Origin: Mustelus asterias
Taxonomy: Eukaryota
Direction: 5' to 3'
DNA: 64,000 bases
Assembly: GCF_964213995.1 (NCBI RefSeq)
Contig: NC_135812.1
Span: forward strand, 16,120,001-16,184,000
The notes under the pieces were generated by a model, which searched no databases, had not been told where the DNA came from, and worked only from the letters and a program-made list of their open reading frames with translations. Positions within the stretch are counted from its first letter, which is position 1. Every line of letters starts with the position of its first letter. Positions 9,228-64,000 of this stretch are shown here, piece by piece. The translations under genes were made by a program, and so were the position numbers.

Positions 9228-9895
9228 CGGCACAGTGGTTAGCACTGCTGCCTCACAGCGCCAGGGACCCAGATTGGATTCCTGGCTTGGGTCACAGTCT
9301 GTGCGGAGTCTGCACGTTTTCCCCGTGTCTGTGTTTCCTCTGGGTTCTCCGGTTTCCTCCCACGGTCCGAAAGACGTGCTGGTTAGGTGCAATGGCCATG
9401 TCAAATTCTCCCTCAGTGTACCCAGACTAAATTCTCCCTCAGTGTACCCAAACAGACTAAATTCTCCCTCAGTGTACCCAAACAGACTAAATTCTCCCTC
9501 AGTGTACCCAAACAGACTAAATTCTCCCTCAGTGTACCCAAACAGACTAAATTCTCCCTCAGTGTACCCAAACAGACTAAATTCTCCCTCAGTGTACCCA
9601 AACAGACTAAATTCTCCCTCAGTGTACCCAAACAGACTAAATTCTCCCTCAGTGTACCCAAACAGACTAAATTCTCCCTCAGTGTACCCAAACAGACTAA
9701 ATTCTCCCTCAGTGTACCCAAACAGACTAAATTCTCCCTCAGTGTACCCAAACAGACTAAATTCTCCCTCAGTGTACCCAAACAGACTAAATTCTCCCTC
9801 AGTGTACTCAAACAGGTGCTGGAGTATGGGGACTAGGGGATTTTCACAGCAACTTAATTGCAGTGTTAATGCAAGCCTACCTTTGACAAATAAAA
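9228..9895 (+). mobile_element. Alternative-tail SINE containing a minisatellite
   Basis: SINE head at 9228; alternative tail resumes after 9815. Confidence 0.85.
9403..9815. repeat. 30-bp minisatellite (12 identical units plus 2 variant end units)
   Basis: aaattctccctcagtgtacccaaacagact repeated perfectly over 9429-9788. Confidence 0.98.
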
Positions 9896-17046: not shown

Positions 17047-17170
17047 GGAGATGCCGGCGTTGGACTGGGGTAAACACAGTAAGAAGTCTAACAACACCAG
17101 GTTAAAGTCCAACAGGTTTATTTGGTAGCAAAAGCCACGAGCTTTCGGGACAGGCTGTCCCTTCGTCAGG
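17047..17170 (-). mobile_element. Penelope-like pLTR mini-insertion with hammerhead core
   Basis: 10-bp TSD tccatgttgt (17037-17046 / 17171-17180). Minus strand CUGACGA-A-GGGACA gcc UGUCCC-GAAAGCUC. Tail shared with the 28051 copy. Confidence 0.85.
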
Positions 17171-17185
17171 TCCATGTTGTACAGT

Positions 17186-25165: not shown

Positions 25166-25802
25166 GCTGATGGCCAGCTCAAGTGATTTTGTTTTTTCCA
25201 ACGGTGTCACATTCTTCTGACGTCCAAAACACGCCATGTTTGGATTTAAACTTCTCTGTGGGAAGATTTAACCACCCTCCTTTAGCAATGTTCCGTAAAA
25301 AAAACCATAGCAATGCTGTAATAGCCAAACATCTTCTCCGTTGGGGCACCCATTTTCCTCAAGGTCATTAGTCTGGTGGCGATGCTGAAGTGCAGGGTGG
25401 TGGGCTATTTGACTGCAAGAGGTATCACCGCAGCTTGATTCGCACACTTGTGTTTCTCAGTGTGGGAGGGCAGGTTTACTGGCTGACACAAAGTTGTAAC
25501 TGTTCCTGGAAATCTGTAACTTTAAAAAGTGGAAAATCCGGAAACACTCAGCAGGTCAGTCAACATCTGGTAATATGTTCCGGATGTGGGCCTTTAATCA
25601 AGATTCAGATGTTACAGATTAAACCAAACAAGGGCAAGTGGTGGGGGGGGGGGGGGGGCGGGTGTTGGTGGGATGAAGCCTAGCAGATTTTAAAAAATAA
25701 ACAAGAAATAGTGACCTGTAAATGTGCTTAATGGATAGCAGGAGATGGTTAACTGGCAGGAGTTGAAGAAGGAAAAGATATTTTTGAGACACGCATGGGA
25801 GA

Positions 25803-43878: not shown

Positions 43879-43930
43879 TGAGGGCGTGTTCAAATGTCCT
43901 GAAGACCAGCTTCCACTTGACTACGCAAAG
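43879..43930 (+). CDS. TRAF4: TRAF4 coding exon 2 (52 nt; end of RING region)
   Basis: Pyrimidine tract + tttcAG acceptor, AAG|GTAAGT donor. Translates (S)EGVFKCPEDQLPLDYAK, matching the vertebrate TRAF4 sequence as I recall it. Confidence 0.96.
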
Positions 43931-44368
43931 GTAAGTGACCATCATAAATGCAAATTGCCCTTTTCCTCGCTGCAACTTTTACTTTTAGTTGCGCTAATTA
44001 GGCGGTCTGATTCACTGAGTGTAATTTGCTGTAATTCATCTGCGCGTTCTGCACAGCTCCCTGGTCTGCGAGGGCTGTTGTGTTACCTTGGGGGTCCTTT
44101 GCCTTTGTCATCCAGCTCTCCACAGCATTCAGCTGCTGCTCGGGTAATTGTTGTAATGAGCATGCCTTCGGGCCTCGCAATCATCTTTACCCTTTATTGT
44201 GCTGCTCACAAAGGACACTTTTTTTTTTACAGTCCTCTTCCTGGTTGGCTGTTTTGCTTTGTTGAATGAATTAAGCCGTCACGGTTTTTCTCCCATCTCT
44301 TCCCCACTCGAGTTTTCTCTGGTTCACCTTGTCTAAGTCCCTTTCGTGTGCTGCTAGAAGATGAGTAA

Positions 44369-44708
44369 ATCATAGAAACCCTACAGTACAGAAAGAGGCC
44401 ATTCGGCCCATCGAGTCTGCACCGACCACAATCCCACCCAGGCCGTATCCCCATATCCCTACAGATTTACCCGCTAATCCCTCTAACCTACACATCTCAG
44501 AACACTAAGGGCAATTTTTAGCATGGCCAATCAACCTAACCCGTACATCTTTGGACTGTGGGAGGAAACCGGAGCACCCGGAGGAAACCCACGCAGACAC
44601 GAGGAGAATGTGCAAACTCCACACAGACAGTGACCCAAGCCAGGAATCGAACCCAGGTCCCTGGAGCTGTGAAGCAGCAGTGCTAACCACTGTGCTACCG
44701 TGCTGCCC
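44369..44708 (-). mobile_element. HE1 SINE, young full-length copy
   Basis: Close to the reverse complement of 3083-3420; CpGs retained. Confidence 0.9.
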
Positions 44709-44754
44709 ATTAAAGCTTTTGCTGTGAGGCTGAATAGGCTTGACATCCCCTTTT

Positions 44755-45546
44755 CTATTTATTAGTGTCACAAGTCAGCTTACATTAACACTGCAATGAA
44801 GTTACTGTGAAAATCCCCTAGTCGCCACACTCCGGCGCCTGATTGGGTTCACTGAGGGGACATTTAGCATGGCCAATGCACCTAACCTTAGGGGCAGGCG
44901 ATGGCCTCGTGATATTATCGCTGGACTATTAATCCAGAAACTCAGCTAATTCTCTAAGGACCTGGGTTCGAATCCCACTACGGCAGATAGTGGAATTTGA
45001 ATTCAATAAAAATAAAAAAACAAAATCTGGAATTAAGAATCTACCGATGACCATGGAACCATTGTCAATTGTCGAAAAAACCCATCTGGTTCATTAATGT
45101 CCTTCAGGGAAGGAAATTTGCCATCCTTACCTGGTCTGGCCTACATGTGACTCCAGACCCACAGCGATGTGGTTGATTCTCAACTGCCTTCGAGCAACTA
45201 GGGATGGGCAATAAATGCTGGCCAGCCAGAGAAGCCGATGTCCCAAGAATGAATTTTTAAAAACCCAGCAAGTTTTAAGGCCTGTTCCTGTGCTGTAATT
45301 TTCTTTGGTAGGGGGTTTTAGTTCAGTCGGGCAGCATGGTCAGTGCAGGCTTGGAGGGCCGAAGGGTCTGTTCCTGTGCTGTAATTTTCTTTGTTCTTTC
45401 GGACTGTGGGAGGAAACTGGAGCACCCGGAGGAAACCCACAGGGAGAGCATGCAGACTCTGCACAGTCAGTGCCACAAGCCAGGAATCGAACTCGGGACC
45501 CTGGCACTGTGAGGCAGCAGTGCGAACCACTGTGCCACCGTGCCGC
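44755..45546 (-). mobile_element. Alternative-tail SINE with two nested insertions (family-B SINE 44892-45262 +; CR1 tail ~45279-45395 +)
   Basis: Host SINE reads through once the inserts are removed (cctaacc|cagca|tctttcggactg). Confidence 0.8.
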
Positions 45547-47032
45547 TCCAACCTTGCATGTATGCATTTACAAAAAGCGGTGGTCATTGAATAGCCGTTA
45601 AGAGCCAGTGCTTTCCCCCTCTCCACCCGGTTTCCCGATCCCCATTGTTCCACAACATCGAGGGCAATTAAGAGGACCCAACTTGGCACTGAGCAGGATT
45701 GAACCCTGGCATCTTCTGACCTGCGGAACCAACCGCACACATGACTGGTACAGTCACCCATTAGATTAAACCAGAAAACTCCGATGTTACTGCAACTCTT
45801 GTGTTTTATTGCTACTTTTGGGAGAACATGCCTTCCAATTTTTGGTGTTCTGTCTTGGCTGCTTGTGAGTTCCTTCATGTTACTGTGAGGGAGAGAAGGT
45901 GATGGCTGGGAGGAGCAAACGTCGTGAGAATAAAGACAGACTTGGGTGGGGGGGGGGCGGGGGTCAGAATATTGCCACTCTCCCAAGCTCCTCCAGGAAC
46001 TGCTCAAGGTGTAACCAAGAGCAGATACTCACCACAAAGTGCATGCCAGTTTAAAATATTTATCTGATAGCCATCATCTTTCCAAATTTCTGTGGAAGCA
46101 ATAATAAATCGAAATGGAGGAATTTTGACCAGAGATTTGGCCAATTTGACCAGAGATTGAGTGGGGCTAAAGAACAATTTACTTGAAAAGAATAGATTTT
46201 TTTCTTCACGTAATGTGACACATTTTTGTGTAGTTCTCAGCTATCCTGAAACATTCTATTAGCTCATGCGCAGTCGCAACACTTATTCAGGGTTTTATGC
46301 GTTGCCCCATAAATCCAGCTTGTTTACGAAATTTAAACAGTTGTTGTGACCAGGCTTTCAAACAATAATGCCCTTGATTATGGTCTCCCCCTGCCCTCCC
46401 CCCCCCCCCCCCCTTTTTTTTGTTTCATCAGCTGAGAGCTCACTAAATAGCATTTGACTTTTCAGCGAAAGAGCCCAGGCGCAACGTCTCTCTGAGCGAT
46501 TTGTCCATGAAGAGAAATGGGCATCTGTCTTGGCGGTTTTGCAAAGGATTGCAAACACTATTTATTCTGAACTCGCCACTTGCTCTCGTCCAGTGTTACG
46601 GTGCCAAAAGAAACCTCAATTGAAATCACTTCTTCATTCATTCAGTCAGTAGCTTGAAAAAGTAGCGCAGTAAATGTGGCTATTTGTCAGTAAGCGCTCG
46701 GATACACTTTGTGATATTGCTTCCCTTCATCCATCTGAAATCCCAAAGCCGGGAGAGGTGTGGGGGATGCATCTTGTTATTTTTTGCACAGTTTTATTGA
46801 TACAGATGGTTTTAATGGCCTCTTTCACCTCATCAATCTGCTGACATCAGAAGCAATTTCATTTCCGAAAACATTTGTTCCAGGAATAATTCTTATTGAA
46901 AATATTTTTAGATTGTAATCCTCGCCTGTGCAATTTTTAAAACTCTTGCCTCCCCCCCCACTGCTGTCCAAGCTGTAAATCTTTTGGCTTCCTCTCTCTT
47001 GTTTTAACTTTTCTGTTGGCTTTGAGGTAACG

Positions 47033-47335
47033 ATGTCACAGTGGTTAGCACTGCTGCCTCACAGTGCCAGGGACCCAGGTTCAATTCCGGCCTCAGGTCA
47101 TGGCCTGTGTGGAGTTTGCATGTTCCAGAGAACTGGAGTGTCTGTGTGGGTTTCCTCCGGGTGCTCTGGTTTCCTCCCACAAGTCCGAAAGATCTGCTGG
47201 TTAGATGCATTGGCCATGCTAAATTCTCCCTCGGTGTACCCGAACAGGCGCCGGAGTGTGGCGACTAGGGGATTTTCACAGTAACTTCATTGCAGTGTTA
47301 AAGTAAGCATACCTGTGACACAAATAAACTTAAAC
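47033..47335 (+). mobile_element. Alternative-tail HE1-like SINE
   Basis: Head plus tail ending tgtgacacaaataaacttaaac. Confidence 0.85.
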
Positions 47336-47676
47336 CTATGAGGAGAGAAACAGAGTTAATGTTTTGGATCTAAATGATCCTTCTGGGCATCACAACTGGA
47401 CTTAGTGGTCCTGGATTAAGGAGTGGGGGTTACAAAGGAATATAGCAACAAGAATTGGCAATTTAGTCACTCAAGCCTGCACTGTCATTTATAATGAGAT
47501 CCTGACCTCCATTTACCTGCCTTGGTTCCATATCACTTCATACTCTTGCCAACAAAGTCTTTTCAATCTTTGTTTTGAAGTTTTTAATTTGATCACCAGC
47601 ATCAATAGCCTTCCACCAGATTTCCCCTACCCAGAAACAGAAACCACGACTGTTACTTTCTCTCTAGCTTGTAGGC

Positions 47677-48290
47677 CAGTGATGGGCAACCTCGGCGAGT
47701 GAGGGGACCACATCAGTGGCCCTCCTTCATCCCAGTGGGTCACAAGATTGAAATCGGGCTCGTTCACCAATCATGATCCCACGAATAAGATTAAATACAT
47801 GTAACACACACTGAATATTTCATAACGAGTTATAGAAAATACTAATTTATTAATAGAACTATCAACTTCACATGGTAAAACCAAAATAAATATTTAATTT
47901 TTGATTGGATACAGAGGGAGCGGACGGCTCTCACACTCAATGTCAGCAATCAGCGCACATCTCACTTCACGTGTCCTTGCTTTATGTGCGTATCGCTTTA
48001 GTCAGGCGGTCCATCCAGCAACTAAATTGCCAACTCTTCTTTCTATGCATCCCTCACTCCTTACTCCCAAGAATATCAAGGCCAATTGTGATGTCCAGTC
48101 CTGATAACCGCTCAGAAGGATCATGGAGGGAAAAGGGAATAGTAGGGGGAAAGATCCTATGCAGACAGGAAACCAGCAGAATCTGGCAACCCTGCACATG
48201 GACAACAGTCAACAAAATGTCTTGTGGGCGACACTCAGGAATCTGATGGGCCACACATGTGTCCCCCAGGCTGCAGGTTGTCTACCACTG
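47677..48290. mobile_element. Non-autonomous hAT-type DNA transposon
   Basis: Imperfect TIR cagtgatgggcaacct / aggttgtctaccactg. TSD not preserved. Confidence 0.6.
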
Positions 48291-48545
48291 TGCAACCAAT
48301 CCTTTCACCCAGTTGCGATCATCCAGCACGTTTCTTGACACAAATCGGATGCCACCTTCCCACCTCCGTGACAAACTGTTCCATCTTCAATTTTTCTCTC
48401 TAAAGCTGAGAGATCGCCGGGATTCTACCGCCCTGCCTGCCACAGAATTGGAGCTGGGGAGGGGCGGACAACGGAAATGTCTGTTGACCTCGAGTGGGAT
48501 TTTCCGGCCTTGCTCGAGTGAGGCTGTAAAATCCCACCCGCTGTT

Positions 48546-48910
48546 GGGGAGGCGATGGCCTAGTGGCATTATCGCTGCACTCTTAATCCAGAAACACAGC
48601 TAATGTTCTGGGGACCTGGGTTCGAATCCCGCCTTGGCAGGTGGTGGAATTTGAATTCAATAAAAAAAATCTGGAATTAAGAATCTACTCACGACCAGGA
48701 AACCATTGACGATTGTCGGAAAAACCCATCTGGTTCACTAATGTCCTTTAGGGAAGGAAATCTGCTGTCCTTACCTGGTCTGGCCTACATGTTACTCCAG
48801 AGCCACAGCAATGTGATTGGCTCTCAACTGTCCTCCAAGGTCAACTAGGGATGGCCAATAAATGCTGACCAGCCAGCAACGCCCATGTCCCACGAATGAA
48901 TAAAAAAAAG
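48546..48910 (+). mobile_element. Family-B SINE, full length
   Basis: A and B boxes; ends cccacgaatgaataaaaaaa. Confidence 0.88.
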
Positions 48911-48997
48911 AATAATCTGTAATCGCATCATCTGAAAGTGGTCCAGTTCTGAGACCATCACAGCTGCTGTAGTAATCCTCGGCTGGTTTCAGAGAGG

Positions 48998-49292
48998 ATA
49001 AAGTTAAAATTTATTTATTAGTATCACAAGAAGGCTTACATTAACACTGCAATGAAGTTACTGTGAAAATCCCCTAGTCGCTACACTCCGGCGCCTGTTT
49101 GGGTACACTGAGGGAGAATTTAGCATGGCCAATGCACGTCTTTGGACTGTGGGAGGAAACCGGAGCACCCGGAGGAAACCCACGCAGACACGGGGAGAAT
49201 GTGAAAACTCCACATAGGTAGTGACCCAAGCCGGGAATTAAACCCGGGGTCCCTAGCGCTGTGAGGCAGCAGTGCTAACCCACTGTGCCACC
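48998..49292 (-). mobile_element. Alternative-tail HE1-like SINE
   Basis: Reverse complement of the 24856 copy. Confidence 0.85.
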
Positions 49293-49454
49293 AAGAATGA
49301 TTAGCAGGGTTCCCTAATCCACAGAGGGTACTGCTAAGGTATGTGGCCAGGACAGGGGGTGCATCCAGCTGTGCTGCCCTCTCTAAGTAGTCACTGCTGT
49401 GCTGGGAGCTGGTATCTGGCCTGGTGCCTGACTTGCAATGAGTGGGCTTTGGGT

Positions 49455-49547
49455 ATGGCTCCCGAGGGCTGGAGTTGCTCACGACACCGGCTAGGAGAGC
49501 ACGAGCTGCTGCCTAATGAAGTGCTGGAGGTGGGAGTGGCGAGGAGA
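49455..49547 (+). CDS. Candidate alternative first coding exon of TRAF4 (31 codons)
   Basis: ggtATGG start context, open frame MAPEGWSCSRHRLGEHELLPNEVLEVGVARR, ends phase 0 at AGA|GTAAGT, compatible with exon 3. No homology or transcript evidence. Confidence 0.3.
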
Positions 49548-50670
49548 GTAAGTAGGAACCACATTAATGCGCCTGACTGGCTGGGCTCTTGGGTACACAC
49601 AATTATCTTTGAAAGCTCCCACTGTGTCACTTTGCTCCCCCTGCTAGTGCTGTGTGCACTCTGTAACTCTGCACGATGAATAGGACGGCTTGTCATTCTG
49701 CTTTGTTTTTGCATCAAACGCATCCTTTTCCCCCGCACTTCCTTTCTGGCCCGGGATACATTTGTTCTTCCGTCCCTGGGGAGCAATAAGGTTTCTGTTT
49801 TGGGGGGAGGAGGCGGGGGGGGGGGGGGGGGGGGATGGTTTCCAATGTCGTTCAGCAGGGAAAAGCTGCAGCCAGTTTCAGTAAATGCTTTCGTGTTGCT
49901 TGGCTGAAGAAAGTGCTGCAACAGCAAACCTCCACCGGGGCCACAAATAGCTAGGAAATGAGGTAAAGGCGAACAGTCTGAGCGTGAGTGATGGGACTGT
50001 TCTTTCACATCAGATCTCTTGTGGAAAAAAAAAAGCTGCCTTTTGGTGCTTTTTTTCTCCCCCCACCAAGTCTTGACTCGCGTGAAACGGAAATCTGTCT
50101 GCTTATCCGCCCCGGTAGATGAGCTGCAAAATTGCTGAGTTTTTTTTCTCTTTTTGTTATTGCTGTGGCAGGGCCCAGCAGCCCCCGTGCTGTTGGCATG
50201 CACCTTAATTGGAAACCGTGCTGGGGCAAGATAATGATGAAAGGCTTCCAAGATGAAAAATGGCTTTGATCTCCGTTTTTGCCTTTTCCGAGCTTGCCTC
50301 TTGGTCTGCTGGGTATGGGGCATATCACTGCAGCAGCCCACCCTCCCTCCTCCCCCACAACCCCCCCCCCCCACACACATACGCACGCACACACACACCC
50401 CACCGCACCTAAAGGCTGCCTCATGGACCTCAACAGTGCTGTTCTAATTGTATCTTTCTTCAAGAAAAAAAATTGCATCTTTCGCAATGTCAGAATATCG
50501 CAACCAATTAAATATTTTTGATTTGATTTATTATTGTCACATGTATTAACATACAGTGAAAAGTTTCTTGCGCACTATACAGCCTTTGTAGCAGGGTCAT
50601 TTTTGTAATGTGTGGAAAAGGGCATGGCAGGTCACCTGCAAACGTAGGCACTTTAGTCCCTCCAATCTCA

Positions 50671-51360
50671 TGGGAGGCGGTGGCCTAGTGGTATTATCGC
50701 TAGACTATTAATCCAGAAGCTCAGCTAACGTTCTGGGGACCCGGGTTCCAATCCCGCCACGGCAGATGGTGGAATTTGAATTTGATTTAAAAATATCTGG
50801 AATTCAGGATCTACGGATGACTGTGAAATCGATTGTCGGAAAAACGCAACTGGTTCGCTAATGTCCTTTAGAATCTTAGAATCCCTACAGCACAGAAAGA
50901 GGCCATTCGGCCCATCGAGTCTGCACCGACCACAATCCCACCCAGGCCCTACCCCCACATATTTACCCACTAATCCCTCTAACCTACACATCCCAGGACA
51001 CTGGCCAAGCTAAAATTGCCCTTAATCAACCTAACCCGCACATCTTTGGACTGTGGGAGGAAACCGGGGCACCCGGAGGAAACCCACGCAGACACGAGGA
51101 GAATGGGCAAACTCCACACAGACAGTGACCGAAGCCGGGAATCGAACCCAGGTCCCTGGAGCTGTGAAGCAGCAGTGCTAACCACTGTGCTACCGTGCCG
51201 CCCTAAGAAGGAAATCTGCCATCCTTACCTGGTCTGGCCTACATGTGACTCCAGAGCCAAGACAATGTAGTTGACTCTCAACTGCCCTCGGGCAACTAGG
51301 GATGGGCAATAAATGTTGGCCCAGCCAGCAAAGCCCACATCCCGTGAACAAATAAAAAAA
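50671..51360 (+). mobile_element. Family-B SINE interrupted by HE1 (minus, 50868-51203)
   Basis: Host joins cctttag|gaaggaaatctg. Confidence 0.85.
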
Positions 51361-51637
51361 ATAAACTTGTTTTGCCCATCAATATCTGCAACCTTGCTCC
51401 AGACACCAACCATCGATTTCCTTTGTTACATCTGGTTGACACAAATCTATCGATCTCCAATCAATTGTTAATTTTGAATCTCGGATCACTGCCAGTTTGT
51501 GGGAGTGAATTCCAAACTTGTGCCACCCTTTCTATGATGAAGTGTTTCCTAATATCACGCCTTTGAAAGTTCTGGCTCTAACTTGACCATATCCCCGAGT
51601 TCTGGTCTTCCCAATCGACAGAAATGTTTCCCCTAAT

Positions 51638-51953
51638 CGGCACGGTGGCACAGTGGTTAGCGCTGCTGCCTCTCAGCGCCGGGGACCCGGGTTCAATTCC
51701 GGCCTCGGGTCACTGTCTGTGTGGAGTTTGCACGTTCTCCCCGTGTCTGCGTGGGTTTCCTCCGGGTGCTCCGGTTTCCTCCCACACTCCAAACGACATG
51801 CTGATTGGGTGTATTGGTCATGCTAAATTGGCCCTTAGTGTCAGGGGGGATTTTCAGGGTAAATATGTGGGGTTACGGGGATACGGCCTGGGTGGGATTG
51901 TTGTTAGTGCAGGCTCAATGGACCGAATGGCCTCCTGTACTGTGGTGATTCTA
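51638..51953 (+). mobile_element. HE1 SINE inside an old minus-strand CR1 relic (~51440-52060)
   Basis: Full HE1 with degenerate CR1 on both sides. Confidence 0.75.
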
Positions 51954-52509
51954 TCCATTCACCTTGATATCTTGAAAACTGATTAAATCATCCCCATACC
52001 TTCTAAATTCAAGAAAAAGCCACCCCAGTTTGTCTGATACCCGCTTGTGGCTTAATTCCTGGAGTCCAAGAATGGGAACTCTCTCTCGATCTTTTCCATT
52101 CACTGTCTGAAGGACAGTCCTCCTCCGATCATGCATTGTCCCCTCCAAATAGTGCACTTAATCTGGTTTTAATAATTGACTGGGGGGGGGAGGACCCACG
52201 ATATTGCCATGGGAACACCCATTTAGTCCAGCAGCTGGGATTCATAGCTCATCCCAAATGATGCAGCGCCTTCAACAATGCAGCACTCCCTCAATAAGTC
52301 ACTGACATCAATATAAACTTATATCCCAAAAGCCTGTCTGGGCCTTAAACCCAAGGCCTTCTGACTTGGCAGGAGTGTTGAGTGGAGTTCACACGTTCCT
52401 TAGACAACCTGAGCAAAAACCAACCAATCTTTTCCTAGAGGAACAGGTGAAGGCCATTCAGCCCATTAAGCCTGTTCTACCATCCAGTGAGATCTATCTT
52501 ATCTCAGCT

Positions 52510-52890
52510 GTTTTATTCAATCATGGGATATGCATGTGGCTGGCTGGGCCAGCATTTGTTGCCCATTCCTAATTGCTGTTGGATTGAGTGGCTTGCTAGG
52601 TCATTTCAGAGGGCATTTGAAGAGTCAACCACATTGCTGAGGATCTGGAGTCACATATAGGCCAGACCAGGTAAGGGTGGCAGATTTCCTTCCCTAGAGG
52701 ACATTAGTGAACCAGATGAGCTTTGATGGCAATCGACAATGGTTTCATGGTCATCATTAGATTTTTAATTCCAGATATTTTTGATTCAAATTCAAATTTC
52801 ACAAATCTGCTGTGGCGGGATTCGAACCCGGGTCCGCAGAGCATTACCCCTGGTCTCTGGACTCTGCAGTGCCGCTAGGCCACTATCTCC
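52510..52890 (-). mobile_element. Family-B SINE
   Basis: Reverse complement of the family pattern. Confidence 0.8.
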
Positions 52891-54009
52891 CTCAACCATT
52901 TTCCATGACATTCTTACCAAATCTGAGAAACTGTCTCTCCACTGACTTTTTGAGAGTAAGAATTCTAGGTTTTTTTGCTTTAATTTGCTTGAAAGATTAG
53001 AGGAGAACATTTTTTTCCTCAGTAGAGTCTGGGACCTGTGCTTGTTGCTGCAGCTTCTTTTGCCATCTTGACGCCATCGCACCCTCCAAACTCCCTCTGG
53101 CTTCTTTTGTGAATGTTCTGTTTTACACTCTCCCCATTTCCACGGTGAAATGTTGATCCCGACCAAAGCATTCAAATCGCTGGACTAAAGGTGCATTGTG
53201 AGTCAGCGTTGAACTGTGGACAATATAGGGGCTTTCATCGGCAGCCAAGTTAGGAAACACACACACACACAACGCTGGAACCTACTACAACCAGTATAAA
53301 TAAAACCATCGCAGCACGCTTTAGAATTGAGCACAAATAGCATAAATAAATCCTTTTCCGCTGCCAACACTTCCTTTCAATTTTCTGATTCATTCCGAGG
53401 GGATTCTTCACCGATTGTACCCAATCCCTCTACTTGACTCTTAAATAACAGGCAGCTCTATTCAAATAAGCGTCCAGGTTCTGAATCTCCCTTGCTTTCC
53501 GCAACCACTGCTTTGCCTTTTGGAGTAAGTGACATGGGTTTTGAAGCTGCCCTGGGCTGTGCTTCACGCTGGAGGTGAATTGTACCATCACGGGGTAGGG
53601 GGGGATCAGTACCCCTCCCTTTAACAGCCAGTCCAGTTCTGTGTGTGGCGAATATTGTAACTTTTTGGGGTGCTGAGGGGCCTCCTGAGATTGAACTGAT
53701 GCCAGGGATGGGGAGGCAACTGAGGCATACGAGAGCTTTTTTCCTCATTCTGAAACGTTGGCACAATTACATTTCCACAGCTTAGTTGAAAGCCCTCCTT
53801 TCTAATTCCCTTTTCGCTTGCCTTTCCCCCCAGCCTGAGGGATCATTCATCTAAAAGTCAGATGGGGGTCGCATTGTATCAATTGAATTGTGGTAAAGGT
53901 GACTTGTTTTTGTTTGAAGCAAGTATGGCTGTGAGGGCCTGAGATGGATCTTCTTATCCCACCACCCCATGTACAAAATAATAACACAGCAAATATCCTG
54001 GACACTGAC

Positions 54010-54770
54010 TTCGATTTGATTTATTAGTGTCACATAGAATTGTAGACTCACTAGAGTGCAGAAAGAGGCCATTTGGCCCACCGAGTCTGCACCGACTATT
54101 ACCCAGGTTTACCCAGTAATCCCACTAACCGAAGGGGCAATTTATCATGGCCAATCTTTGGAGTGTGAGAGGAAACCGGAGCACCCGGCGAAAGCCCACG
54201 CAGACATGGGGAGAACGTGCAAACTCTACACCGAGAATCACCCTGGCGCTGTGAGGCAACAGTGCTAACTTATTGGGATGCAGTGAAAAGTATTGCTTCT
54301 TGCGCCAAACAGACATAACATACCATTCATAGAGTCTGTAGGGGAGAAGGAAAAGAGAGGGTGCAGAATGTTACAGTCACAGCTGGGGTGTAGAACACAA
54401 TTAAAGTTTAAAAGAGTAAGAGGACAGTTTTAAGAGCATAGAATGAGAGTAACGGCACAGTGGCACAGTTGTTAGCACTGCTGCCTCACACCGCCAGGGA
54501 CCCAGGTTCGATTCTCGGCTTGGGTCACTGTTTGTGTGAAGTCTGCACATTCTCCCCATGTCTGCGTGGGTTTCCTCCAGGTGCTCCGGTTTCCTCCCAT
54601 ACTCCAAAGGTGTTCGGATTGGGTAGATTGGCCATGGTAAATTGACCCGAGTGTCAGGGGAAGTAGTAGGGTAAATACATGGGGTTATGGGGACAGGGCC
54701 TGGGTGGGATTGTGGTCGGTGCAGACTCTATGAGCCAAATAGCCTCCTTCTGCACTTAAGGGATTCTATG
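54010..54770. mobile_element. Rex1 3' UTR (minus) with nested HE1 (minus, ~54033-54270), then HE1 (+, 54452-54770)
   Basis: Pattern matches to other copies in the window. Confidence 0.75.
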
Positions 54771-55510
54771 ATAGAACAGGGGAGTGGGTGGAAAACAGCT
54801 AATATCCTGGGAACTAACAGCGGGGGCGGATGGGGGTTGTGGTGGGAATTATCTTCCTTACTGCCCGGGCTGGGATATCGAATAGATTGAACTCTTGTGC
54901 AGTGCAGTGTATCAGCAAGGCTTGCAGAGGGTTAATAAAGTTTACCTTACAACTTGAGCTGCTGAATGTAGGATGAGTGTAAGCCAGGGTGGAGCATTAG
55001 TGCCAACATCTTGAGCCAAGTGGCTTGTTTCTGCGTTGTACACTCCATGCGCGGTTAAGAGCCCCGGGGCTTTTGGGTTTGGTTGCAAGAACGCAGCTGT
55101 GGTATATCGTTGGTGCTGCAAATACTCTCCACTGCCCTCATCGCACAATGTACGGTGTGCCCCCACACTCCCCGGATAGTCAGCACTGCAATAACTTTTT
55201 TAAAATGTTCTTTTGTTCCACATCAATGAATACACAACTGGTAGACAAATGTATTCCACTCTGCAGCACTGTGTGGCTGCAGTCCAGAGAGTGGATGAAT
55301 GTCGCTCTCAGAGACTCCTACCACCTGCCTTGGGAACCAGTGACGGGTAGACATTCTTTGAGGGGGGGAATCGGAACCCACATGACCTGTGGCCAAACAC
55401 AGCAGATTCATTGGAGCGTCGCTGCCAATGATGTCTTTTTAGAATTGTGCAGCTTTGAATTTATGTCTGGCTGTTATTTTAGTTTCATCTCCAGTTAGTT
55501 TATGCCAAGC

Positions 55511-55865
55511 GATGGCACGGTGGTTAGCACTGCTGCCTCACAGCGCCAGGGACCCGGGTTCAATTCCAGCCTTGGGTCACTGTCTGTGCGGAGTTTGCAC
55601 GCTCTTCCCATGTCTGTGTGGGTTTCCTCCGGGTGCTCTGGTTTCCTCCCACACTCCAAATATGTGCAGGTTACGTTGATTGGCCGTGTTAAATTGACCC
55701 TAGTGTCAGGGAGATTAGCAGGGTAAATATGTGGGGTTATGGCGATAGGTCCATATTCGATTGGACCTATTCGATTGGCGATAGGTCCAATCGAATATGG
55801 ACCCATTGTGGTGGGTCCATGTTCGATGGACCAAATGGCCTCCTTCTGCACTGCAGGGATTCTAT
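55511..55865 (+). mobile_element. HE1 SINE with palindromic replacement in its tail
   Basis: HE1 pattern except 55741-55825. Confidence 0.85.
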
Positions 55866-56128
55866 TCAAGATGTCAAGGGTTCCTATTGTGTGATGAAGA
55901 TAAAGTTTGTTCATTCGTTTCACAAGTAGACTTACATTAACACTGCAATGAAGTTACTGTGCAAATCCCCTTGTTGCCACATTACAGCTGTTGGACTAGA
56001 GTCATATATGGGACAGTCAGAGTAAGGATGGTGGATTTCCTTTCATAAAGGGCATTAATGAACCAGAATGGTTTTTAATGACAATTAGGGAGTTTCATCT
56101 AATTGAATATAAATTAACTTCTGAATTA

Positions 56129-56500
56129 AGGGTGGCACGGTGACACAGTGGTTAGTGCTGCTACCTCACAGCACCAGGGACCCGGCTTCAATTCCGGCTT
56201 TGGGTGACTGGCTGTGTGGAGTTTGCACGTTCTCCCCGTGTTTGCGTGGGTTTCCTCCGGGTGCTCTGTTTTCCTCCCACAGTCCAAAGATGTGCAGGTT
56301 AGGTGGATTGGCCATGCTAAATTGACTCTTGGTGTCCAAAGATGTGCAGGTTAGGTGGGTTGACCATGCCAAATTGTCCCTTAGTGTCAGGGGGATTAGT
56401 GGTGTAGATGCGCAGGGTTAGGGCCTGGGTGGGATTGTTGTCGGTGCAGGCTCGATGGGCCGAATGGCCTCCTTCTGCACTGAAGAGATTTTACGATTCT
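56129..56500 (+). mobile_element. HE1 SINE with internal duplication
   Basis: gtccaaagatgtgcaggttaggtgg...aaattg occurs twice. Confidence 0.85.
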
Positions 56501-57769
56501 AATTGCCGTTAATATTGAAGTTGCTTTGTTGACTAGCTAGGTGTATCTGAACGAGGTGAGAAAGCTCCTGCTTGGTGAGTGAAGCCGTTCTTTGGCATGA
56601 CCCTCGAGTTCTAATATCTGTCAAAGCTTTGATTTATTTCCCTTCAGTCTCAATCATGTACAGAACTGGTAATTCAGACCAACTGTTCTGGCCTTGTTAC
56701 AATAACTTCAGGGACCGTGCACTGACTTTACAGATTTACATCATGCGTTATATCGGTAAAAAGTTTTAACTGGCACCAGGTTCAAATCTATTTTGGATTT
56801 GATTCAGTCAGAGTCCTGTCCGCTCCCTGAACCAAACTGTGATTAATCAGCAGGACCTGAATTTCAACGATTTTCCAAGTGTTTGTATTCCAAAAGTACA
56901 GCATGAATTTGGGATTGAGTTTGGAGTTCCAAGCACGCACCATGATTTTTACTTGTTGATCTTTCTCTCCTAACCCCAGTTGATGCATCATTTATCAGGG
57001 CAGCATTTGTTCGAATTGGAGCAGAACATTTAGTCTTTTGAATATCGCTCTGCGCTGCAGAATTCGATTCATTTTTAAATACAAGATTTCTGGTGTATTA
57101 AAGAAACAAGGGCAATGGTACATGTTCCAGAGTTGTCCCTCTTACCTTGCTTCTTGATCGTAGTTGCAGACGGTTCTCTTAACACAAGATTAGTTATGAA
57201 TATTTTAAGAGCAATAAATCTACTCTTCAGGTTGACCTTGGCATTTTCATCAGCTGATTAGTGGTTATTAAAATAATGTGATGCCCCATCAAATGTCCCT
57301 CATGTAGACTTTAACCTGGTTACTGTCCTCACGTTTCTGACAGCTTTGCCAACATTTTAATTCTCTGCGTCTCTCCTTGTGTCACTGGGAGTAAAGGGGA
57401 CTTGTGTTGCAGTGCCATCTCTCCGGCAATACCAACCTGTTGCCTTACGCATTTGACTGGCGAGGCCACAGAGTGGTGCGAAAGCATGACCGGGTGCATT
57501 GCTGCACCGTTTTAGACCGGGTGCGTTGCGGCGCCGGTTTGGACCGGGTTCAATCCCCGGCCTGTGCTGCACATATATAGCCCCAGTTTACCGAATTGTC
57601 GCTGTGGTCCTAGCCGATCTTTACTGGATGATTCTTGCTGGAACAGTGGAGGACTTCTGATGAGCACAGGATCTAGCTCAGCAGTGACGGCTCTGTGCAG
57701 GAATATTCTTTTCACACTACCAAACCTCACATGCAAGCTTAGATAGGCAAAGTAGCATGTACTGATCAC

Positions 57770-58612
57770 ACATCTTGATCAATTGGGCCAGTGGGCCGAT
57801 GAATGGCAGATGGAGTTTAATTTAGATAAATGTGATGTGATGCATTTTGGTAGATTGAATCGGGGCAGGATCTACTCAGTTAATGGTAGGGCGTTGGGGA
57901 GTGTTATGGAACAAAGAGATCTAGGAGTACAGGCTCATAGCTCCTTGAACGTGGAGTCACAGGTGGACAGAGTGGTGAAGAAGGCATTTAGCTTGCTTGG
58001 TTTCATTGGTCAGAACATTGAATACAGGATTTGGGACGTCTTGTTGAAGTTGTACAAGACATTGGTACGGTCACACTTGGAATACTGTGTATAGTTCTGG
58101 TCACCCTATTATAGAAAGGATATTATTAAACTAGAAAGAGTGCAGAAGAGATTTATTCGGATGCTATCGGGACTTGATGGTTTGAGTTATAAGGAGAGGC
58201 TGGATAGACTGGGACTCTTTTCCCTGGAGTGTAGGAGGCTGAGGGGTGATCTTACAGAGGTCTATAAAATAATGTGGGGCATAGATAAGGTAGATAGTCA
58301 ATATCTTTTCCCAAAGATAGGGGAGTCTAAAACTAGAGGGCATAGCTTTGAGAGGAGCGATACAAAAGAGTTCAAAGGGGCAATTTTTTCACAGAGGGTG
58401 GTGAGTGTCTAGAACAAGCTGCCAGAGGCATTCAGGACATTCCAGAGGTTGGTACAATTTGTCTTTTAAAAAGCATTTAGACAGATGGGTACGGTTGGTA
58501 TAGAGGGATATGTGCCAAACACGGGCAATTGGGGCTACCTTTGTGGTTAAAAACTGGGTGGCATGGACAAGTTGGGCCGAAGGGCCTGTTTCCATGCTGT
58601 AAGGGCCTGTTT
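57770..58612 (+). mobile_element. CR1 LINE 3' fragment
   Basis: WQMEFNLDKC, LYKTLVRSHLEYCV and RLRGDLTEVYKIM motifs, with stops. Confidence 0.9.
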
Positions 58613-59374
58613 CCTCTACTGGTGGGCCATGCCAAAGAGACAAAGGAAGGTTGTGACTGAGGAGAGATGCATTGTTCGCATTCTTAAAGGGTCTCTCTGT
58701 GTTGGGCTGAATATCTGTAAACAGCCGTAAACATTGATCAGCACTGTAACCTCTCCAAGATTTTAACAAATCATTAACAATTTGGACGTTCCACCCGTCA
58801 GTGGGGGCGACTTAAAATTGACGTTGCTGCAGGTACTCTCACTCACACCGCATCGCACAGGCAGCATTTAACAATTCAGAGGTGAAGAAAAGAGTGGAGA
58901 CAAAGGATCTTGAAGGGGTAGAAAGGATACATTTCACATTGCAGTTACCATAAATGAGAGTTATTCACTGTCTGCTCATTATTCGGAGCTGTTGCGTGCT
59001 TGTGGGTTGCCCTCAGCAATGCGCTAACCTTTTGCACTGTGCAGTGACGATGCTGTTCTAATCCTGTAAGTCCTCGCCACCGTCACACTGAGCTATTGAC
59101 TTGTAATGAAGGGTAACCAAGTGGGCCTCCCACTCGTCCTTGGCACAAGAGTTGCCAGCCCACCAGGATTGAACTGGAGTCTCCAGTAATTGAAGATTAA
59201 TTTTCAGGGCATTGCTGCAAGCAACATAGGAGAAGAATCAGTGGAGAATTAAAAACAACTTTCTTTTTTTCCCTTTGAACTCTGCTGTTTTGGCAATTAT
59301 CAAAATATTGGGAGTTGTGAAAAACTGTTTGGTCATTTAACTTGGGTCATTGAAGGACTTCTTGCTTTCCATTT

Positions 59375-59930
59375 AGAACATAGAACATAGAACAGTACAG
59401 CACAGAACAGGCCCTTCGGCCCACGATGTTGTGCCGACCTTCATCTGAAACCAAGATCAAGCTATCCCACTCCCTACCATCCTGGTGTGCTCCATGTGCC
59501 TATCCAATAACCGCTTAAATGTTCCTAAAGTGTCTGACTCCACTATCACTGCAGGCAGTCCATTCCACACCCCAACCACTCTCTGCGTGAAGAACCTACC
59601 TCTGATATCCTTCCTATATCTCCCACCATGAACCCTATAGTTATGCCCCCTCGTAATAGCTCCATCCACCCGAGGAAATAGTCTTTGAACGTTCACTCGA
59701 TCTATCCCCTTCATCATTTTATAAACCTCTATTAAGTCTCCCCTCAATCTCCTCCGCTCCAGAGAGAACAGCCCCAGCTCCCTCAACCTTTCCTCATAAG
59801 ACCGACACTCCAAACCAGGCAGCATCCTGGTAAATCTCCTCTGCACTCTTTCCAGCGCTTCCACATCCTTCTTATAGTGAGGTGACCAGAACTGCACGCA
59901 ATATTCCAAATGCGGTCTCACCAAGGTCCT
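59375..59930 (-). mobile_element. Young CR1 LINE 3' end
   Basis: Uninterrupted 155-aa ORF2 C-terminus; (tagaaca)3 tail. Confidence 0.92.
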
Positions 59931-59989
59931 GGGATGATGGTGAACATGAACATTTTAAACTACTTGTCTAGCTTGTGAGGATGGACAAG

Positions 59990-60325
59990 TTCATAGAAAC
60001 CCTACAGTGCAGAAGAGGCCTTTCGGTCCATCAGGTCTGCACCCACTCTCCGACAGAACATCTTACCCAGGCTCTATCCCCATAACCCAACATATTTACC
60101 CCATTAATTCCCCTAACCTATCCATCTTGGGACACTAAAGGACAATTTAGCATGTCCAATACACCTAACTTGCACATCTTTGGAGTGTGGGAGGAAACTG
60201 GAGCACCCGGAGGAAACCCACGCAGACACGGGGAGAACGTGTAAACTCCACACAGTCACCCAAGGCGGGAATTGAACCCGGGTCCCTGGCGCTGTGAGGC
60301 AGCAGGGCTAACCACTGTGCCACGC
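59990..60325 (-). mobile_element. HE1-like SINE
   Basis: Reverse complement of the HE1 pattern. Confidence 0.85.
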
Positions 60326-61889
60326 CAATGAAGACAAGAGATCATGCGATGAAACCTCTAGGAATATGTCCAGCCGCAATTGTCAGCCTTGTCTCTGCAT
60401 GCTGGGATAACCCCATCGCTTGACAACAATTCTCATCTTCTGTCACTGGGGAGAAAAGACGAGGAGAGAAATATTTTGAGTGGAAATACTACTCTGTGAT
60501 AAGAAAACCGCGACATTGGTAAAAGCAAAACACAAGGAAAGGACGACCACTTCCTGCTATTGTCTGGGTCATGTCGAGAAGGCAAATCCCAAAATATTCA
60601 TGTTGAATATTGTGAGGTGGTATAGTGTCCTCGCTCACCTTCAATATCTTGTGGTTATTTTCAGAATTGCATATTTAGAGCCACTAAACATTGGATTAGT
60701 CTTGACAGATCTTTGACGTTCTAAATTCAGCCAGTTAAAGCTCTGTAGGAAAGGGAGAGGCTATTCGGCCCATTGTGCTTTCAGCTGTCCCAATCGTCTG
60801 TCCTCTGCTCTCACTCTCTTTCTAAATTGCTCCCTTGTTTGAGTAGTTGCCTTTTCTGAAAAGCTGCTCGAATCTGAATGCAGCACGTTAATCTGGCAAG
60901 ACATTTCAATGTCCCAACAATCCTCTGTGTCTCCAAAGTGGTATCTTTGTGAACTCTCCCCGTTGCTATTTCTGTGATCCTCACGTATGTGCTCCATCTG
61001 TTCCATTTGCCCCAAGGGGGAAATTCACAAATCCTACTCTGGTATAATGCAGTAGTCTTGTGTTTAAACACTAAATTTAAGCTAGCCTGAATTTACCATT
61101 TGATTTTTCAATTCACCGGGAGCAAAGGCCAGTAAACCTTCCTATTTCTGTTGAATTTAAAGCCCACCCAGTTGTGTGTTTGAAATTCTTTGCACCGTTT
61201 TTCAGTGCCTATTTTTGCCGCTAAATGATTCCAGAGCCCTTGTACCTTGTATTTGTGTATTTCCTCCGCCTTGCTTCCAGCGGCCTTGCTGTTAACCTGA
61301 TTGCACTGACATTTAGTACCTATCTCGTTTGAATTTGTAATTAAAAATAGCAGCTCAGACGCGCATACAATAAACCATAATTCATCATAATGGCAAGATT
61401 GCCAAATCATCACAGCTCAGTTTTCAAATGACTTTTTATTTATAACATGGGGAGCACCAATGGAAATATCAAGTTGAAGGACATTATTTGCAGCAAGTAG
61501 GGGTGATCTCCAGAAATGCAGCAGGGTGTCTCAATCCTATCGCTGGGATGTGAGTGCGCCCATTGAAAGCCACAGCTCCTGACGCGCGATCCTGGGCACG
61601 CCAATAGATTCAAGGTGTGTCGGCACTTGGGGTTTCCCCTGCATGGTGATCACAGCAACGCACGTCACAGGCAAACCAGGAGTCTCTCCTCACGGCAGTT
61701 GGATGGATCTCAGCTGCCAGGAACACACAGCCAGGCAAGCTTCTTGGTGGAATGTGAATCGTCAGACTGAGGGGCAAGTCCAACTTTCATGTAACAGCTG
61801 ATCTGCACATTTACTACACGTGGCAGAGGGTTTAAAAACATTGGCACTGCAACACGACATAACTGTTTCAATTAACCTGTGTATGCGTC

Positions 61890-61917
61890 CGTGTGTGTGT
61901 GTGTGTGTGTGTGTGTG
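61890..61917. repeat. (GT)n microsatellite
   Basis: Read directly. Confidence 0.9.
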
Positions 61918-62031
61918 GGGAGACATGATTACCTATTGGCTGGGCAGGCAGCACGCAGTGAGATGGCCCTGTTATTTATATGACATCTGGAACACGGTCA
62001 CTGGCTTTCAGCCGAGAATAAAATATGTCCG

Positions 62032-62269
62032 AGATAAAAGCAAAATAGTGCGGATGCTGGAAGCTGAAACAAAAACAGAAAATGCTGGAAAATCTCAGCA
62101 GGTCTGGCAGCGTCTGTGGGGAGAGAATAGAGCTAATGTCCCGAGTCTGGATGACCCTTCCTCAGAGCCCAGCTCTGACGAAGGGTCATCGGGACTCGAA
62201 ACGTTGGCTCTATTCTCTCCCCACAGATGCTGTCAGACTTGCTGAGATTTTCCAGCACTTCCTGTTTTT
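62032..62269. mobile_element. Fold-back Penelope-like pLTR insertion
   Basis: Imperfect inverted arms ~62070-62168 / 62172-62270; 16-bp TSD gaataaaat(a/t)tgtccg (62016-62031 / 62270-62285). Confidence 0.85.
62171..62209 (+). ncRNA. Minimal type I hammerhead ribozyme motif
   Basis: AGCU-CUGACGA-A-GGGUC aucgg GACUC-GAAACGUU-GGCU: intact core, stems I and II pair, palindromic AACGUU stem III. Confidence 0.7.
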
Positions 62270-62555
62270 GAATAAAATTTGTCCGCTGCTCGAATCTCTC
62301 GTATCAAAACACTTCTTTTTAAAATAAAGTCTGCAAAAAAAGCTGATGCCATAATTGTCCCACTCTGAAGGTCTCTTATCTGTTTTGCAGTCGGAGCATA
62401 ACATGAACCTGCATTTGTATAGCACCTGTAATGTAGTAAAACATTCTAAGGTGCTTCGCAGGGTTATTTTAATTTCCATATTCATATTTTTAAAAGATTA
62501 TTTTCTGAAGCATAAAGAAATATCTTGTGTTTGCATTTGGCAGCCCAGTTGTGCA

Positions 62556-63270
62556 GGGCACGGTAGCACAGTGATTAGCACTGCTGCCTCACAATGCTAG
62601 GGACCCGGGTTCAATTCCCAGCTGGGGTCACTGCCTGTGCAGAGTCTGCACGTTCTCCCCGTGTCTGCGTAGGTTTTCTCCTGGTGCCCCAGTTTTCTCC
62701 TACACTCCAAAGATGTGCAGGTTAGGTGGATTGGCCACGGTAAATTGCCCCTTAGTGTCAGGGGGACTAGTTACGGTAAATGCATAGGGTCATGGGGGTA
62801 GGGCCTGGGTGGGATTGTGGTCGATGCAGACTTGATGGGCTGAATGGCCCCCTTCTGCACAGTAGGATTGTATGATTGTTATGAAGCTATTTGGCCCATT
62901 GAGTCTGCACCCACAGCAATCCCAACCATTTACCCTGCTAATCCCTCCAATTTATGCATCCCGGGACACTAAGGGGCAATTTAGCATGGCCAATGCACCT
63001 AACCTGCACATCTTTGGACTGTGGGAGGAAAACTGGAGCACCCAAAAGAAACCCACGCAGACATGGGGAGAATGTGCAAACTCCACACAGACAACGACCC
63101 AAGCCAGGAATTGAACCCAGGTCCCTGGAGCTGTGAGACAGCAGTGCTAACCACTGTGCCATCGTGCCGCCCCAGGTTACGAGGATAGGGTGAGATTGTT
63201 GTCGATGCAGGCTCGATGGGCCGAATGGCTTCCTTCTGCACTGTAGGGATTCTGTGAATCTATGACTCTA
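62556..63270. mobile_element. HE1 cluster (+ 62556-62880; - 62888-63172; + tail 63172-63270)
   Basis: Tail-to-tail adjacent copies forming a near-contiguous inverted repeat. Confidence 0.8.
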
Positions 63271-63894
63271 TGAAATAGCATAAGCATTAAATGGTTTGAC
63301 GTGGGCTAAGGAGTTAATTCTTTCTCCCAGAACAGGGTAGATTCATTAAATTCCAAATACCACCTAGGAATCTTTTAAATGTAGCGAAATAGACCAGGTT
63401 TCTGTCTATGCAGCACTCCCATTAGTGCAGCACTGAAGTGTCTCACTACATTGAGTTCCCCAATCCTAAAGGGGGGCTTGAGGCTGCCACCTCTTTAATT
63501 TGGAGGCAAGTGGGTTACCAGTGATCCAAAGTGATGAGTGATGTTTTGGTTGTGTTCTGGTCTTGTGAACTAAAATGAAATATTTTTTTAAATGCATGTG
63601 TTATTTCTTGAGCGCTGAAGGACAGAGAGAATCCAGAGTCGAAGGCTGGTTTATGGGGAGTTAGTTCATCTTGGTCTGAGAGGTGATGGATATGTGTCCT
63701 TGGGCTAAATGTTCTGCCAACAGAGGAATAAAAAAAAAAAGGTTTTAATATAGCCTTGCTCAATCGCTTATAATTTCTCTCCCTGAAACTTCTGTTGCTG
63801 ATTGGATTTATTATTAATAATCAATCTTGTGTTACCGAGTCGCATGAACATATTTTATTCATTGAGTTTAAGCGTCGTGTTCTTGCTTTTTCAG

Positions 63895-63999
63895 ATCTAT
63901 CCTGATCCCGAGTTGGAGGGCCAGATTCTGGCCCTGCCCATTCGTTGCATTCACAGTGAGGAGGGCTGCAGGTGGACAGGACAGATTAAACAGCTACAG
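63895..63999 (+). CDS. TRAF4: TRAF4 coding exon 3 (105 nt)
   Basis: tcttgctttttcAG acceptor, phase 0 and in frame with exon 2. Translates IYPDPELEGQILALPIRCIHSEEGCRWTGQIKQLQ (human, recalled: IYPDPELEVQVLGLPIRCIHSEEGCRWSGPLRHLQ). G64000 fits the first base of a GT donor. Confidence 0.96.
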   Translation, partial: MYPDPELEGQILALPIRCIHSEEGCRWTGQIKQLQ

Positions 64000-64000
64000 G

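Follow-up and report, generated by a model that had tools for sequence, protein, structure and literature searches.

The 20-kb intron of TRAF4 that crosses the analysed window (a stretch of 64,000 nucleotides of Mustelus asterias DNA) carries a 238-bp insert. We interpret it, with a probability of roughly 70%, as a short, decayed head-to-head insertion of the pLTR of a Penelope-like element (PLE), likely made as both nicked target strands primed cDNA from two RT start sites, with a hammerhead ribozyme that is predicted to be trapped in the resulting hairpin and inactive. The insert is an ordinary copy, one of hundreds of such copies in the genome, and nothing at it points to selection.

Architecture of the insert

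The insert lies between the two copies of a single TSD that are identical at 15 of 16 positions. Its inverted arms are separated by a 3-nt spacer and are complementary at 87 of 99 positions (62070-62168 and 62172-62270). A preliminary description of this DNA had claimed a 238-bp insert with a 15/16 TSD and hence one integration event, which we confirm, as one TSD encloses both arms. It had also described two inverted arms of ~100 bp with a 3-nt spacer. Arms and spacer are as described, but the arms are not equal: the left arm extends 38 nt beyond the 99-nt match, over 62032-62069, into the antisense 3' tail of Penelope, and thus measures ~137 nt versus 99-100 nt for the right arm. The final base of the right arm (62270) is also the first base of the right TSD. 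The features of the insert and its host intron are as follows.

62016-62031, unstranded: left TSD, 16 nt, 15/16 identical to 62270-62285
62032-62069, minus strand: Penelope 3' tail, ~35-38 nt, in the left arm only; aligns to the 3' extension of the family
62070-62168, minus strand: left arm, antisense pLTR segment from family position -3; over 135 nt, arm plus tail shows 10 differences from the family majority
62131-62168, minus strand: mirror hammerhead, decayed; GAAA changed to GGGA (62139-62142), stem III palindrome broken at 62137
62169-62171, unstranded: arm junction CCA, unique to the locus; the A is family position -4
62171-62270, plus strand: right arm, sense pLTR segment that begins at -4 and has the tail-less end; over 100 nt it shows 6 differences from the family majority
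62171-62209, plus strand: predicted minimal type I hammerhead motif, mapped manually to the features described in PMC4209133
62270-62285, unstranded: right TSD, 15/16 identical to the left TSD
43880-43930 (approximate), plus strand: TRAF4 exon upstream of the host intron, from the translated peptide
63895-64000 (reaching the window edge), plus strand: TRAF4 exon downstream of the host intron, from the translated peptide; later exons match TRAF4

As RNA, the insert is predicted to fold at -177.6 kcal/mol (z = -20.7), and none of 200 shuffled sequences was equally stable. The earlier suggestion that the insert forms a long hairpin and is a possible source of dsRNA is supported. The insert is not an assembly artefact: in one study, the arm junction is spanned by public DNA contigs from two samples, the second of which also has contigs across both flank junctions. 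No empty-site joint occurred among the matches listed for three DNA runs.

Parent element and shared 5' start

Longer copies of the family run upstream into a TATA motif, a pyrimidine-rich stretch and then GIY-YIG-like coding sequence; in two of them, a common stretch of 2.1 kb (82%) contains RT motifs. These parent remnants match RVT_1 (E = 2.5e-5) and GIY-YIG (E = 0.09); as the copies are broken, both matches fall below the curated Pfam cut-offs. A search of 30 body-matched loci and two 8-kb extensions found no intact parent. The RT and GIY-YIG remnants upstream of longer copies bear out the Penelope-like origin claimed earlier. Judged from sequence, the insert is the pLTR segment of an endonuclease-positive PLE, with RT followed by GIY-YIG.

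Most arms share one starting point. Relative to the core, 69 of 99 arms start at -5 to 0, of which 33 start exactly at -4, while 20 extend at least 21 nt upstream. Of 34 long copies, 20 have a TATA motif that begins exactly 30 nt before -4, and nine lack the motif. The T of the parent at -6 is present in 32/34 long copies versus 11/31 short copies, and a G at -5, as the copying of a cap might leave, occurs in 8/31 short copies versus 0/34 long ones. We infer from this spacing that -5/-4 is a putative transcription start of the element, so that each arm would reproduce in full the first 100 or 135 nt of the element's RNA. For comparison, Penelope of D. virilis has a TATA-less internal promoter (PMC2377424). 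The arms hold the whole uncleaved ribozyme, in line with the main template of the anole PLE, which is described as uncleaved, unprocessed RNA (PMC11167929).

Two other explanations of the shared 5' end were considered. The parent has a pyrimidine run and then YAG before the core, which suggested a splice acceptor. That reading predicts a boundary at -2 and a constant upstream exon; the boundary is found at -5/-4 with nothing shared upstream, and it was rejected, a very short exon being the one form that still fits. Stalling of the RT at stem I is unlikely by reasoning, because the 3' strand of that stem is where the RT would begin to unwind it.

The sense arm of the family forms an open frame through core and tail (in the window, the frame of 62049-62324), and about a third of the copies read ATG in the core. 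The ORF of the anole element starts at stem II.

Fold-backs pair one tailed with one tail-less arm

Our sample consisted of the 100 core matches listed first, which represent 99 loci on two contigs; it was not selected for fold-backs and is not a random sample of the genome. Counted from the C of CUGA, the 3' ends of the arms fall into two groups ~35 nt apart, at +92 to +104 (tail-less) and at +129 to +132 (tailed). The tail-less end lies at a pyrimidine run and then CAG, which resembles a splice acceptor. An inverted partner was present at 36 of the 99 loci and absent from the other 63; five of the 36 fold-backs were interrupted and 31 could be classified. All 31 combined a tailed with a tail-less arm, whereas the single copies (32 tailed, 22 tail-less) lead one to expect ~49% (p = 2.5e-10).

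Other sets gave similar counts. The 30 loci most similar to the insert comprised 29 mixed pairs and one double tail (L017), and the 19 copies selected by their junction comprised 12 mixed pairs, six unclassed pairs and one that was scored as double tail-less, with a deletion. In L194, which the script scored as two tail-less arms, the tail is visible behind the deletion. In L017 (1420-1830) both arms are tailed and the flanking repeat is inverted as well, forming a larger palindrome that is probably a secondary inverted duplication or a conversion. A second family had one tail in 20 of 23 pairs and two tails in none, the remaining three being unclassed.

TSDs of 8-17 nt flanked 23 of the 31 fold-backs versus 2 of 31 controls with mismatched flanks, and an adjacent TSD was present in only 10 of 38 short single copies. 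Hidden short inverted starts were detected in 2 of 54 single copies (L048, L116); most single copies are therefore not cryptic fold-backs.

The second family (L122-L136, L195-L206) shows the same fold-back geometry and the same tail rule. Its junctions often have GTGAGT directly after CAG, which gives the antisense arm a perfect splice-donor consensus, and a short duplication in L200 and L204 repeats the first half of the core. The window itself contains, at approximately 17049-17175 on the minus strand, a single tailed copy of a second hammerhead PLE family with a different stem II and an AGCU palindrome, which would not pair with the ACGU stem III of the family in the TRAF4 intron. A decayed fragment of the insert's own family lies antisense on the plus strand at 25506-25569. 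A tandem array of ~36-nt units inside a SINE-like repeat, at 9100-9830, shows up as repeated peptides in the six-frame translation.

Probable priming on both target strands

According to the model that we prefer, the PLE enzyme, a predicted dimer, would cut the two target strands ~8-17 nt apart, and each strand would prime one cDNA, one from the outer start site (with tail) and one from the inner start site (no tail). The two cDNAs would often be copied from different RNA molecules. They would run to the 5' end of the RNA or stop early, and their 3' ends would be joined head to head by repair, which would leave variable junctions. The parent remnants, the shared start, the end rule, the TSDs and the diverse junctions are the observations from which we infer the cut, the priming, the joining and the two RNAs. 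Work on the anole PLE describes both target strands as cut and extended, finds two RT start sites flanking the tail and predicts a dimer (PMC11167929). However, that work does not explain the strict rule of one start each, because its in vitro reactions, as reported, showed no strand difference in start site. We give even odds to the more general proposition that a dimeric RNP with two RNAs uses the outer start on one strand and the inner start on the opposite strand, always with a different start for each, copies to the cap site and joins the products head to head.

A rather improbable alternative is that the tail-primed cDNA reaches the 5' end of the RNA, folds back on AGCT, copies itself, stops ~35 nt short and joins the target. 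Such snap-back would account directly for the one-tail rule. The most frequent junction, AGCT, occurs in 5 of 19 copies, and self-priming has been proposed for palindromic PLE junctions (PMC3846280). However, snap-back predicts arms that are identical at birth, and the arms often disagree at +16 and +45, two common non-CpG variants that are diagnostic of subfamilies. They were discordant in 11/51 pairs at +16 and in 15/60 pairs at +45, compared with 121/2,546 (4.8%) at background sites, i.e. about five times background. Without the loci selected by similarity, discordance was 6/28 at +16 and 8/32 at +45, with a background of 5.4%. In the second family, L197 joins two stem II types and is thus a chimera of two subfamilies. 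Furthermore, the single copies end at the same two points as the fold-backs, so the short end is a start site rather than a stall. Either arm may be the more 5'-truncated one, the tailed arm being longer or more truncated at random, and many junctions carry filler of up to hundreds of bases.

The arms are nevertheless more alike than random pairs, as snap-back would have it. Discordance at the diagnostic sites is ~22-25% within insertions versus 49% expected for random pairs, within-pair divergence is 9.5% versus 10.3% after permutation, and several pairs of the second family share rare variants (L127, L130, L198, L205). This likeness and the shared variants fit one template, snap-back for many copies, or arm-to-arm conversion. 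It could also be that +16 and +45 are mutation hot spots, and +45 borders a TC run. The simplest reading is that the two RNAs come from the small number of sources that are active at any one time. Pre-insertion editing of the template was rejected, as the sense strand shows no excess of A-to-G over T-to-C. The insert in the TRAF4 intron does not lend itself to typing for two templates, because its odd variants are nearly private (2 matches). Snap-back would lead to the same verdict on this insert, a neutral by-product, through another mechanism.

A recurrent layout with diverse junctions

With the insert as query, the 3.68-Gb genome yielded 4,533 candidates, and all 40 places that were scored cover nearly the whole insert. 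A 33-nt core pattern had 1,250 exact matches in the genome (control: 0). Since an exact match to this pattern was present in just one of 13 partner arms and in eight of 50 similar arms, we estimate that the family probably comprises about 10,000 arms. Two cores stand head to head within 12 nt at 437 loci from at least two families (control: 1). One region (G000:C16:87.32-87.48 Mb; L159, L169) contains a segmental or tandem duplication with a unit of ~7 kb, in which a truncated PLE is present in at least five copies of equal score.

The preliminary description had considered two accounts of the fold-back: a replicated, non-autonomous hairpin family, or a one-off inversion of an ordinary PLE. 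A search with the 31-nt arm junction of the locus returned a single genomic match, the locus itself, and the 19 copies of the family selected by junction had 10 different spacers. The layout thus recurs while the junction does not, and no hairpin master is being copied. The first account is not borne out; the second is right about the unique junction, but such inversions are routine in the family rather than a one-off.

For the same reasons, we regard it as very improbable, and largely refuted, that a non-autonomous hairpin element is transcribed and re-inserted as a unit, like a SINE, a MITE or a retrozyme. The very many copies with the same layout and TSDs are what such an element would produce, and non-autonomous PLE derivatives exist (bioRxiv 10.64898/2026.07.22.740005). 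However, besides the unique junction of the locus and the diverse junctions of the family, tailed and tail-less arms have no fixed differences, the sense strand lacks an A-to-G excess, and long ORF-bearing copies can bear the same inverted cap (L155, L095). Nor is the insert a tandem array. The non-LTR retrozymes described in the same preprint share with it a non-coding nature, a PLE origin, a type I hammerhead and dispersed monomers, but they consist of head-to-tail tandem units that supply the dimer in cis, whereas the insert has two head-to-head arms that block the ribozyme fold, with no further sense copy in 74 kb.

The hammerhead and its predicted fold

The right arm contains the core CUGACGA (62175-62181) with an extra A at 62182, a stem II of 5 bp (62183-62187/62193-62197), GAAA at 62198-62201, the stem III palindrome ACGU (62201-62204), a predicted cut after U62205 and a stem I of 4 bp (62171-62174/62206-62209). 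By manual mapping, it has the published features of minimal PLE hammerheads: a CUGANGA...GAAA...UH core, a bulged base 9/10.1, G10.1-C11.1 and a palindromic stem III. The complete plus-strand core reported earlier, with its cut after 62205, is thus confirmed as a predicted minimal type I motif. The left arm deviates from this pattern. The reported change of GAAA to GGGA in the mirror copy was correct (changes at 62140 and 62141), and the G of the palindrome at 62137 is lost as well. An Rfam scan of 58000-64000 with E up to 10 gave no hammerhead match, and its hairpin matches, which bear on the question of a known miRNA or siRNA precursor, were all sub-threshold.

The GGGA form of the left arm has only two matches in the whole genome and is therefore most likely private decay. 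A loop variant in the right arm also has two matches, and both variants were rejected as subfamily marks.

Folding predictions place the ensemble of the whole insert that is constrained to form the hammerhead 50.9 kcal/mol above the hairpin. The predicted probability of stem II is 3e-17 in the insert and remains below 1e-12 in nascent transcripts that end just past the core, because the left arm is transcribed first. Even in the right arm alone, other folds are favoured over the hammerhead by a predicted 5-7 kcal/mol. Furthermore, no second sense copy of the family that might serve as dimer partner is present in 74 kb (the window plus 10 kb). The competition between ribozyme and hairpin that had been put forward is therefore not supported, since the hairpin is predicted to be ahead by ~51 kcal/mol and to trap the core already in the nascent transcript, and since the motif needs a dimer partner, of which there is none in these 74 kb. 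In the published tests of minimal PLE hammerheads, monomers were inactive and dimers had low activity (PMC4209133), and the ribozyme of the anole PLE is reported to require the protein (PMC11167929). The hammerhead is predicted to be locked in the hairpin and so likely has no effect on TRAF4.

Position in TRAF4

The host intron extends from about 43931 to 63894, and the insert lies 1.6 kb from the closest exon. The next acceptor, at 63894/63895, is 1.69 kb beyond the predicted cut. The distance of 1.7 kb given earlier therefore holds; that the next exon is exon 3, like the identity of the upstream exon, is our assumption from human TRAF4. The downstream exons match the TRAF4 structures 2EOD and 2YUC and zf-TRAF, and a search of the window with two short motifs did not find exon 1 of TRAF4.

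In the TRAF4 pre-mRNA, the left arm, made first, would capture the emerging right arm. The insert would then amount to a neutral ~100-bp hairpin in the intron that serves at most as a substrate of ADAR, and it is probably neutral at TRAF4. Penelope repeats are heavily A-to-I edited in a lizard, and self-palindromic repeats are described as good ADAR targets (PMC5625713); by analogy, the hairpin in the TRAF4 intron could be edited. The same intron contains a second possible source of dsRNA at 62557-63168, two opposed SINE-like repeats of 141 nt that are 330 nt apart and 81% complementary. Four presumed-RNA contig sets from other organisms, matched to 61940-62400 of the window, cover the repeat only and not its flanks, and thus have no bearing on the locus in the TRAF4 intron. 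In one of these sets (run X1), and in none of the other three, six arm positions show A>G and T>C changes that make up 13-55% of depth; either editing of transcripts from the family or a variant of that species could account for them.

That the host uses the element, as a sequestered or switchable ribozyme or as a functional dsRNA that regulates TRAF4 pre-mRNA, is highly doubtful. The idea draws on the intact core on the pre-mRNA strand opposite a broken mirror copy, on the presence of the insert in two samples and on the editing of Penelope repeats in the lizard. However, core and palindrome are intact in 14 of 51 arms of the most similar copies, so that the special intactness implied earlier is not supported. 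Among 30 similar loci, exactly one arm is intact in 10 and both arms in two; hence one intact and one broken arm need no selection. The predicted barrier of 51 kcal/mol, the other folds preferred by the right arm alone, the published lack of monomer activity and low dimer activity (PMC4209133), the lack of a second sense copy in the window plus 10 kb, and the distance to the nearest exon within a 20-kb intron argue in the same direction.

Least probable of all is a chance head-to-head arrangement of two independent insertions or of a later inverted duplication: L017, with its inverted flank, resembles a secondary duplication of this kind, but chance would give the same end type in about half of the pairs (observed: 0/31), TSDs surround most fold-backs, and the single 16-nt TSD around both arms refutes it for this locus.

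Comparison with known systems

An inverted pLTR with one tail and a TSD is already a published PLE layout, and so are opposite-strand pairs of minimal hammerheads. In Adineta vaga, Pen2a/Pen2 has an inverted 5'-truncated pLTR, one tail and a TSD (PMC3846280; scheme in PMC8557442). It shares with the present family the head-to-head inverted copy, a tail of 30-40 nt at one end, TSDs of similar size, a palindrome-prone junction and a TATA plus initiator-like motif in the pLTR. In contrast to Pen2a/Pen2, the insert has no ORF, and both of its arms run ~100-135 nt from one start point. The tail rule counted here on 31 + 20 pairs from two families, and the frequent differences between arms at diagnostic sites, are not reported in the passages on Pen2a/Pen2. 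The Adineta study favours self-priming on an antisense template (PMC3846280).

Poseidon of Anolis carolinensis (PAc) likewise has a hammerhead in the pLTR and two RT starts that bound the tail (PMC11167929). The PAc paper, in its available sections, offers no model of how insertions become inverted, and the start sites it observed did not differ by strand, whereas use of the two sites is strictly complementary in the family studied here. The minimal hammerheads of metazoan PLEs share the extra base 9/10.1, G10.1-C11.1, the short helix I and the palindromic stem III, and they too occur as thousands of dispersed copies with some close opposite-strand pairs (PMC4209133). Helix II has 5 bp here versus 7-8 bp in Schistosoma, and unlike the pairs described in that study, the pairs here lie within a few bases of each other and together make up a single hairpin.

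L1 elements can be inverted at integration by twin priming, in which both target strands prime and one TSD encloses the product. The two primers then copy adjacent, non-overlapping parts of one RNA, whereas in the present family the two arms are copies of one segment, begun at two defined start sites. In the openly accessible literature that we searched, we found no paper on a dual- or twin-priming model of PLE inversions or on fold-backs of shark PLEs.

Significance for PLE integration

The origin of the inverted repeats and tails of PLEs has been described as an open problem (PMC8557442), and the fixed layout of one long and one short arm is a useful hint to the likely mode of PLE insertion. 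The value of the present data lies in family statistics that provide a testable model of PLE integration. For the anole in vitro system, the model predicts complementary use of the start sites, chimeras of two RNAs and cDNAs that end at the cap site. A further implication of the counts is that 100-bp hairpins number in the hundreds to thousands in such genomes and would form dsRNA without a partner repeat.

If the model of a dimeric RNP with two RNAs is true, it would explain the combination of an inverted pLTR with a single tail and would speak against self-priming on an antisense template. Lone minimal hammerheads, which occur in thousands, would then be full copies of the 5' end of the RNA. 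PLEs would be a steady source of ready-made intronic dsRNA, and their stubs would be fossils of integration.
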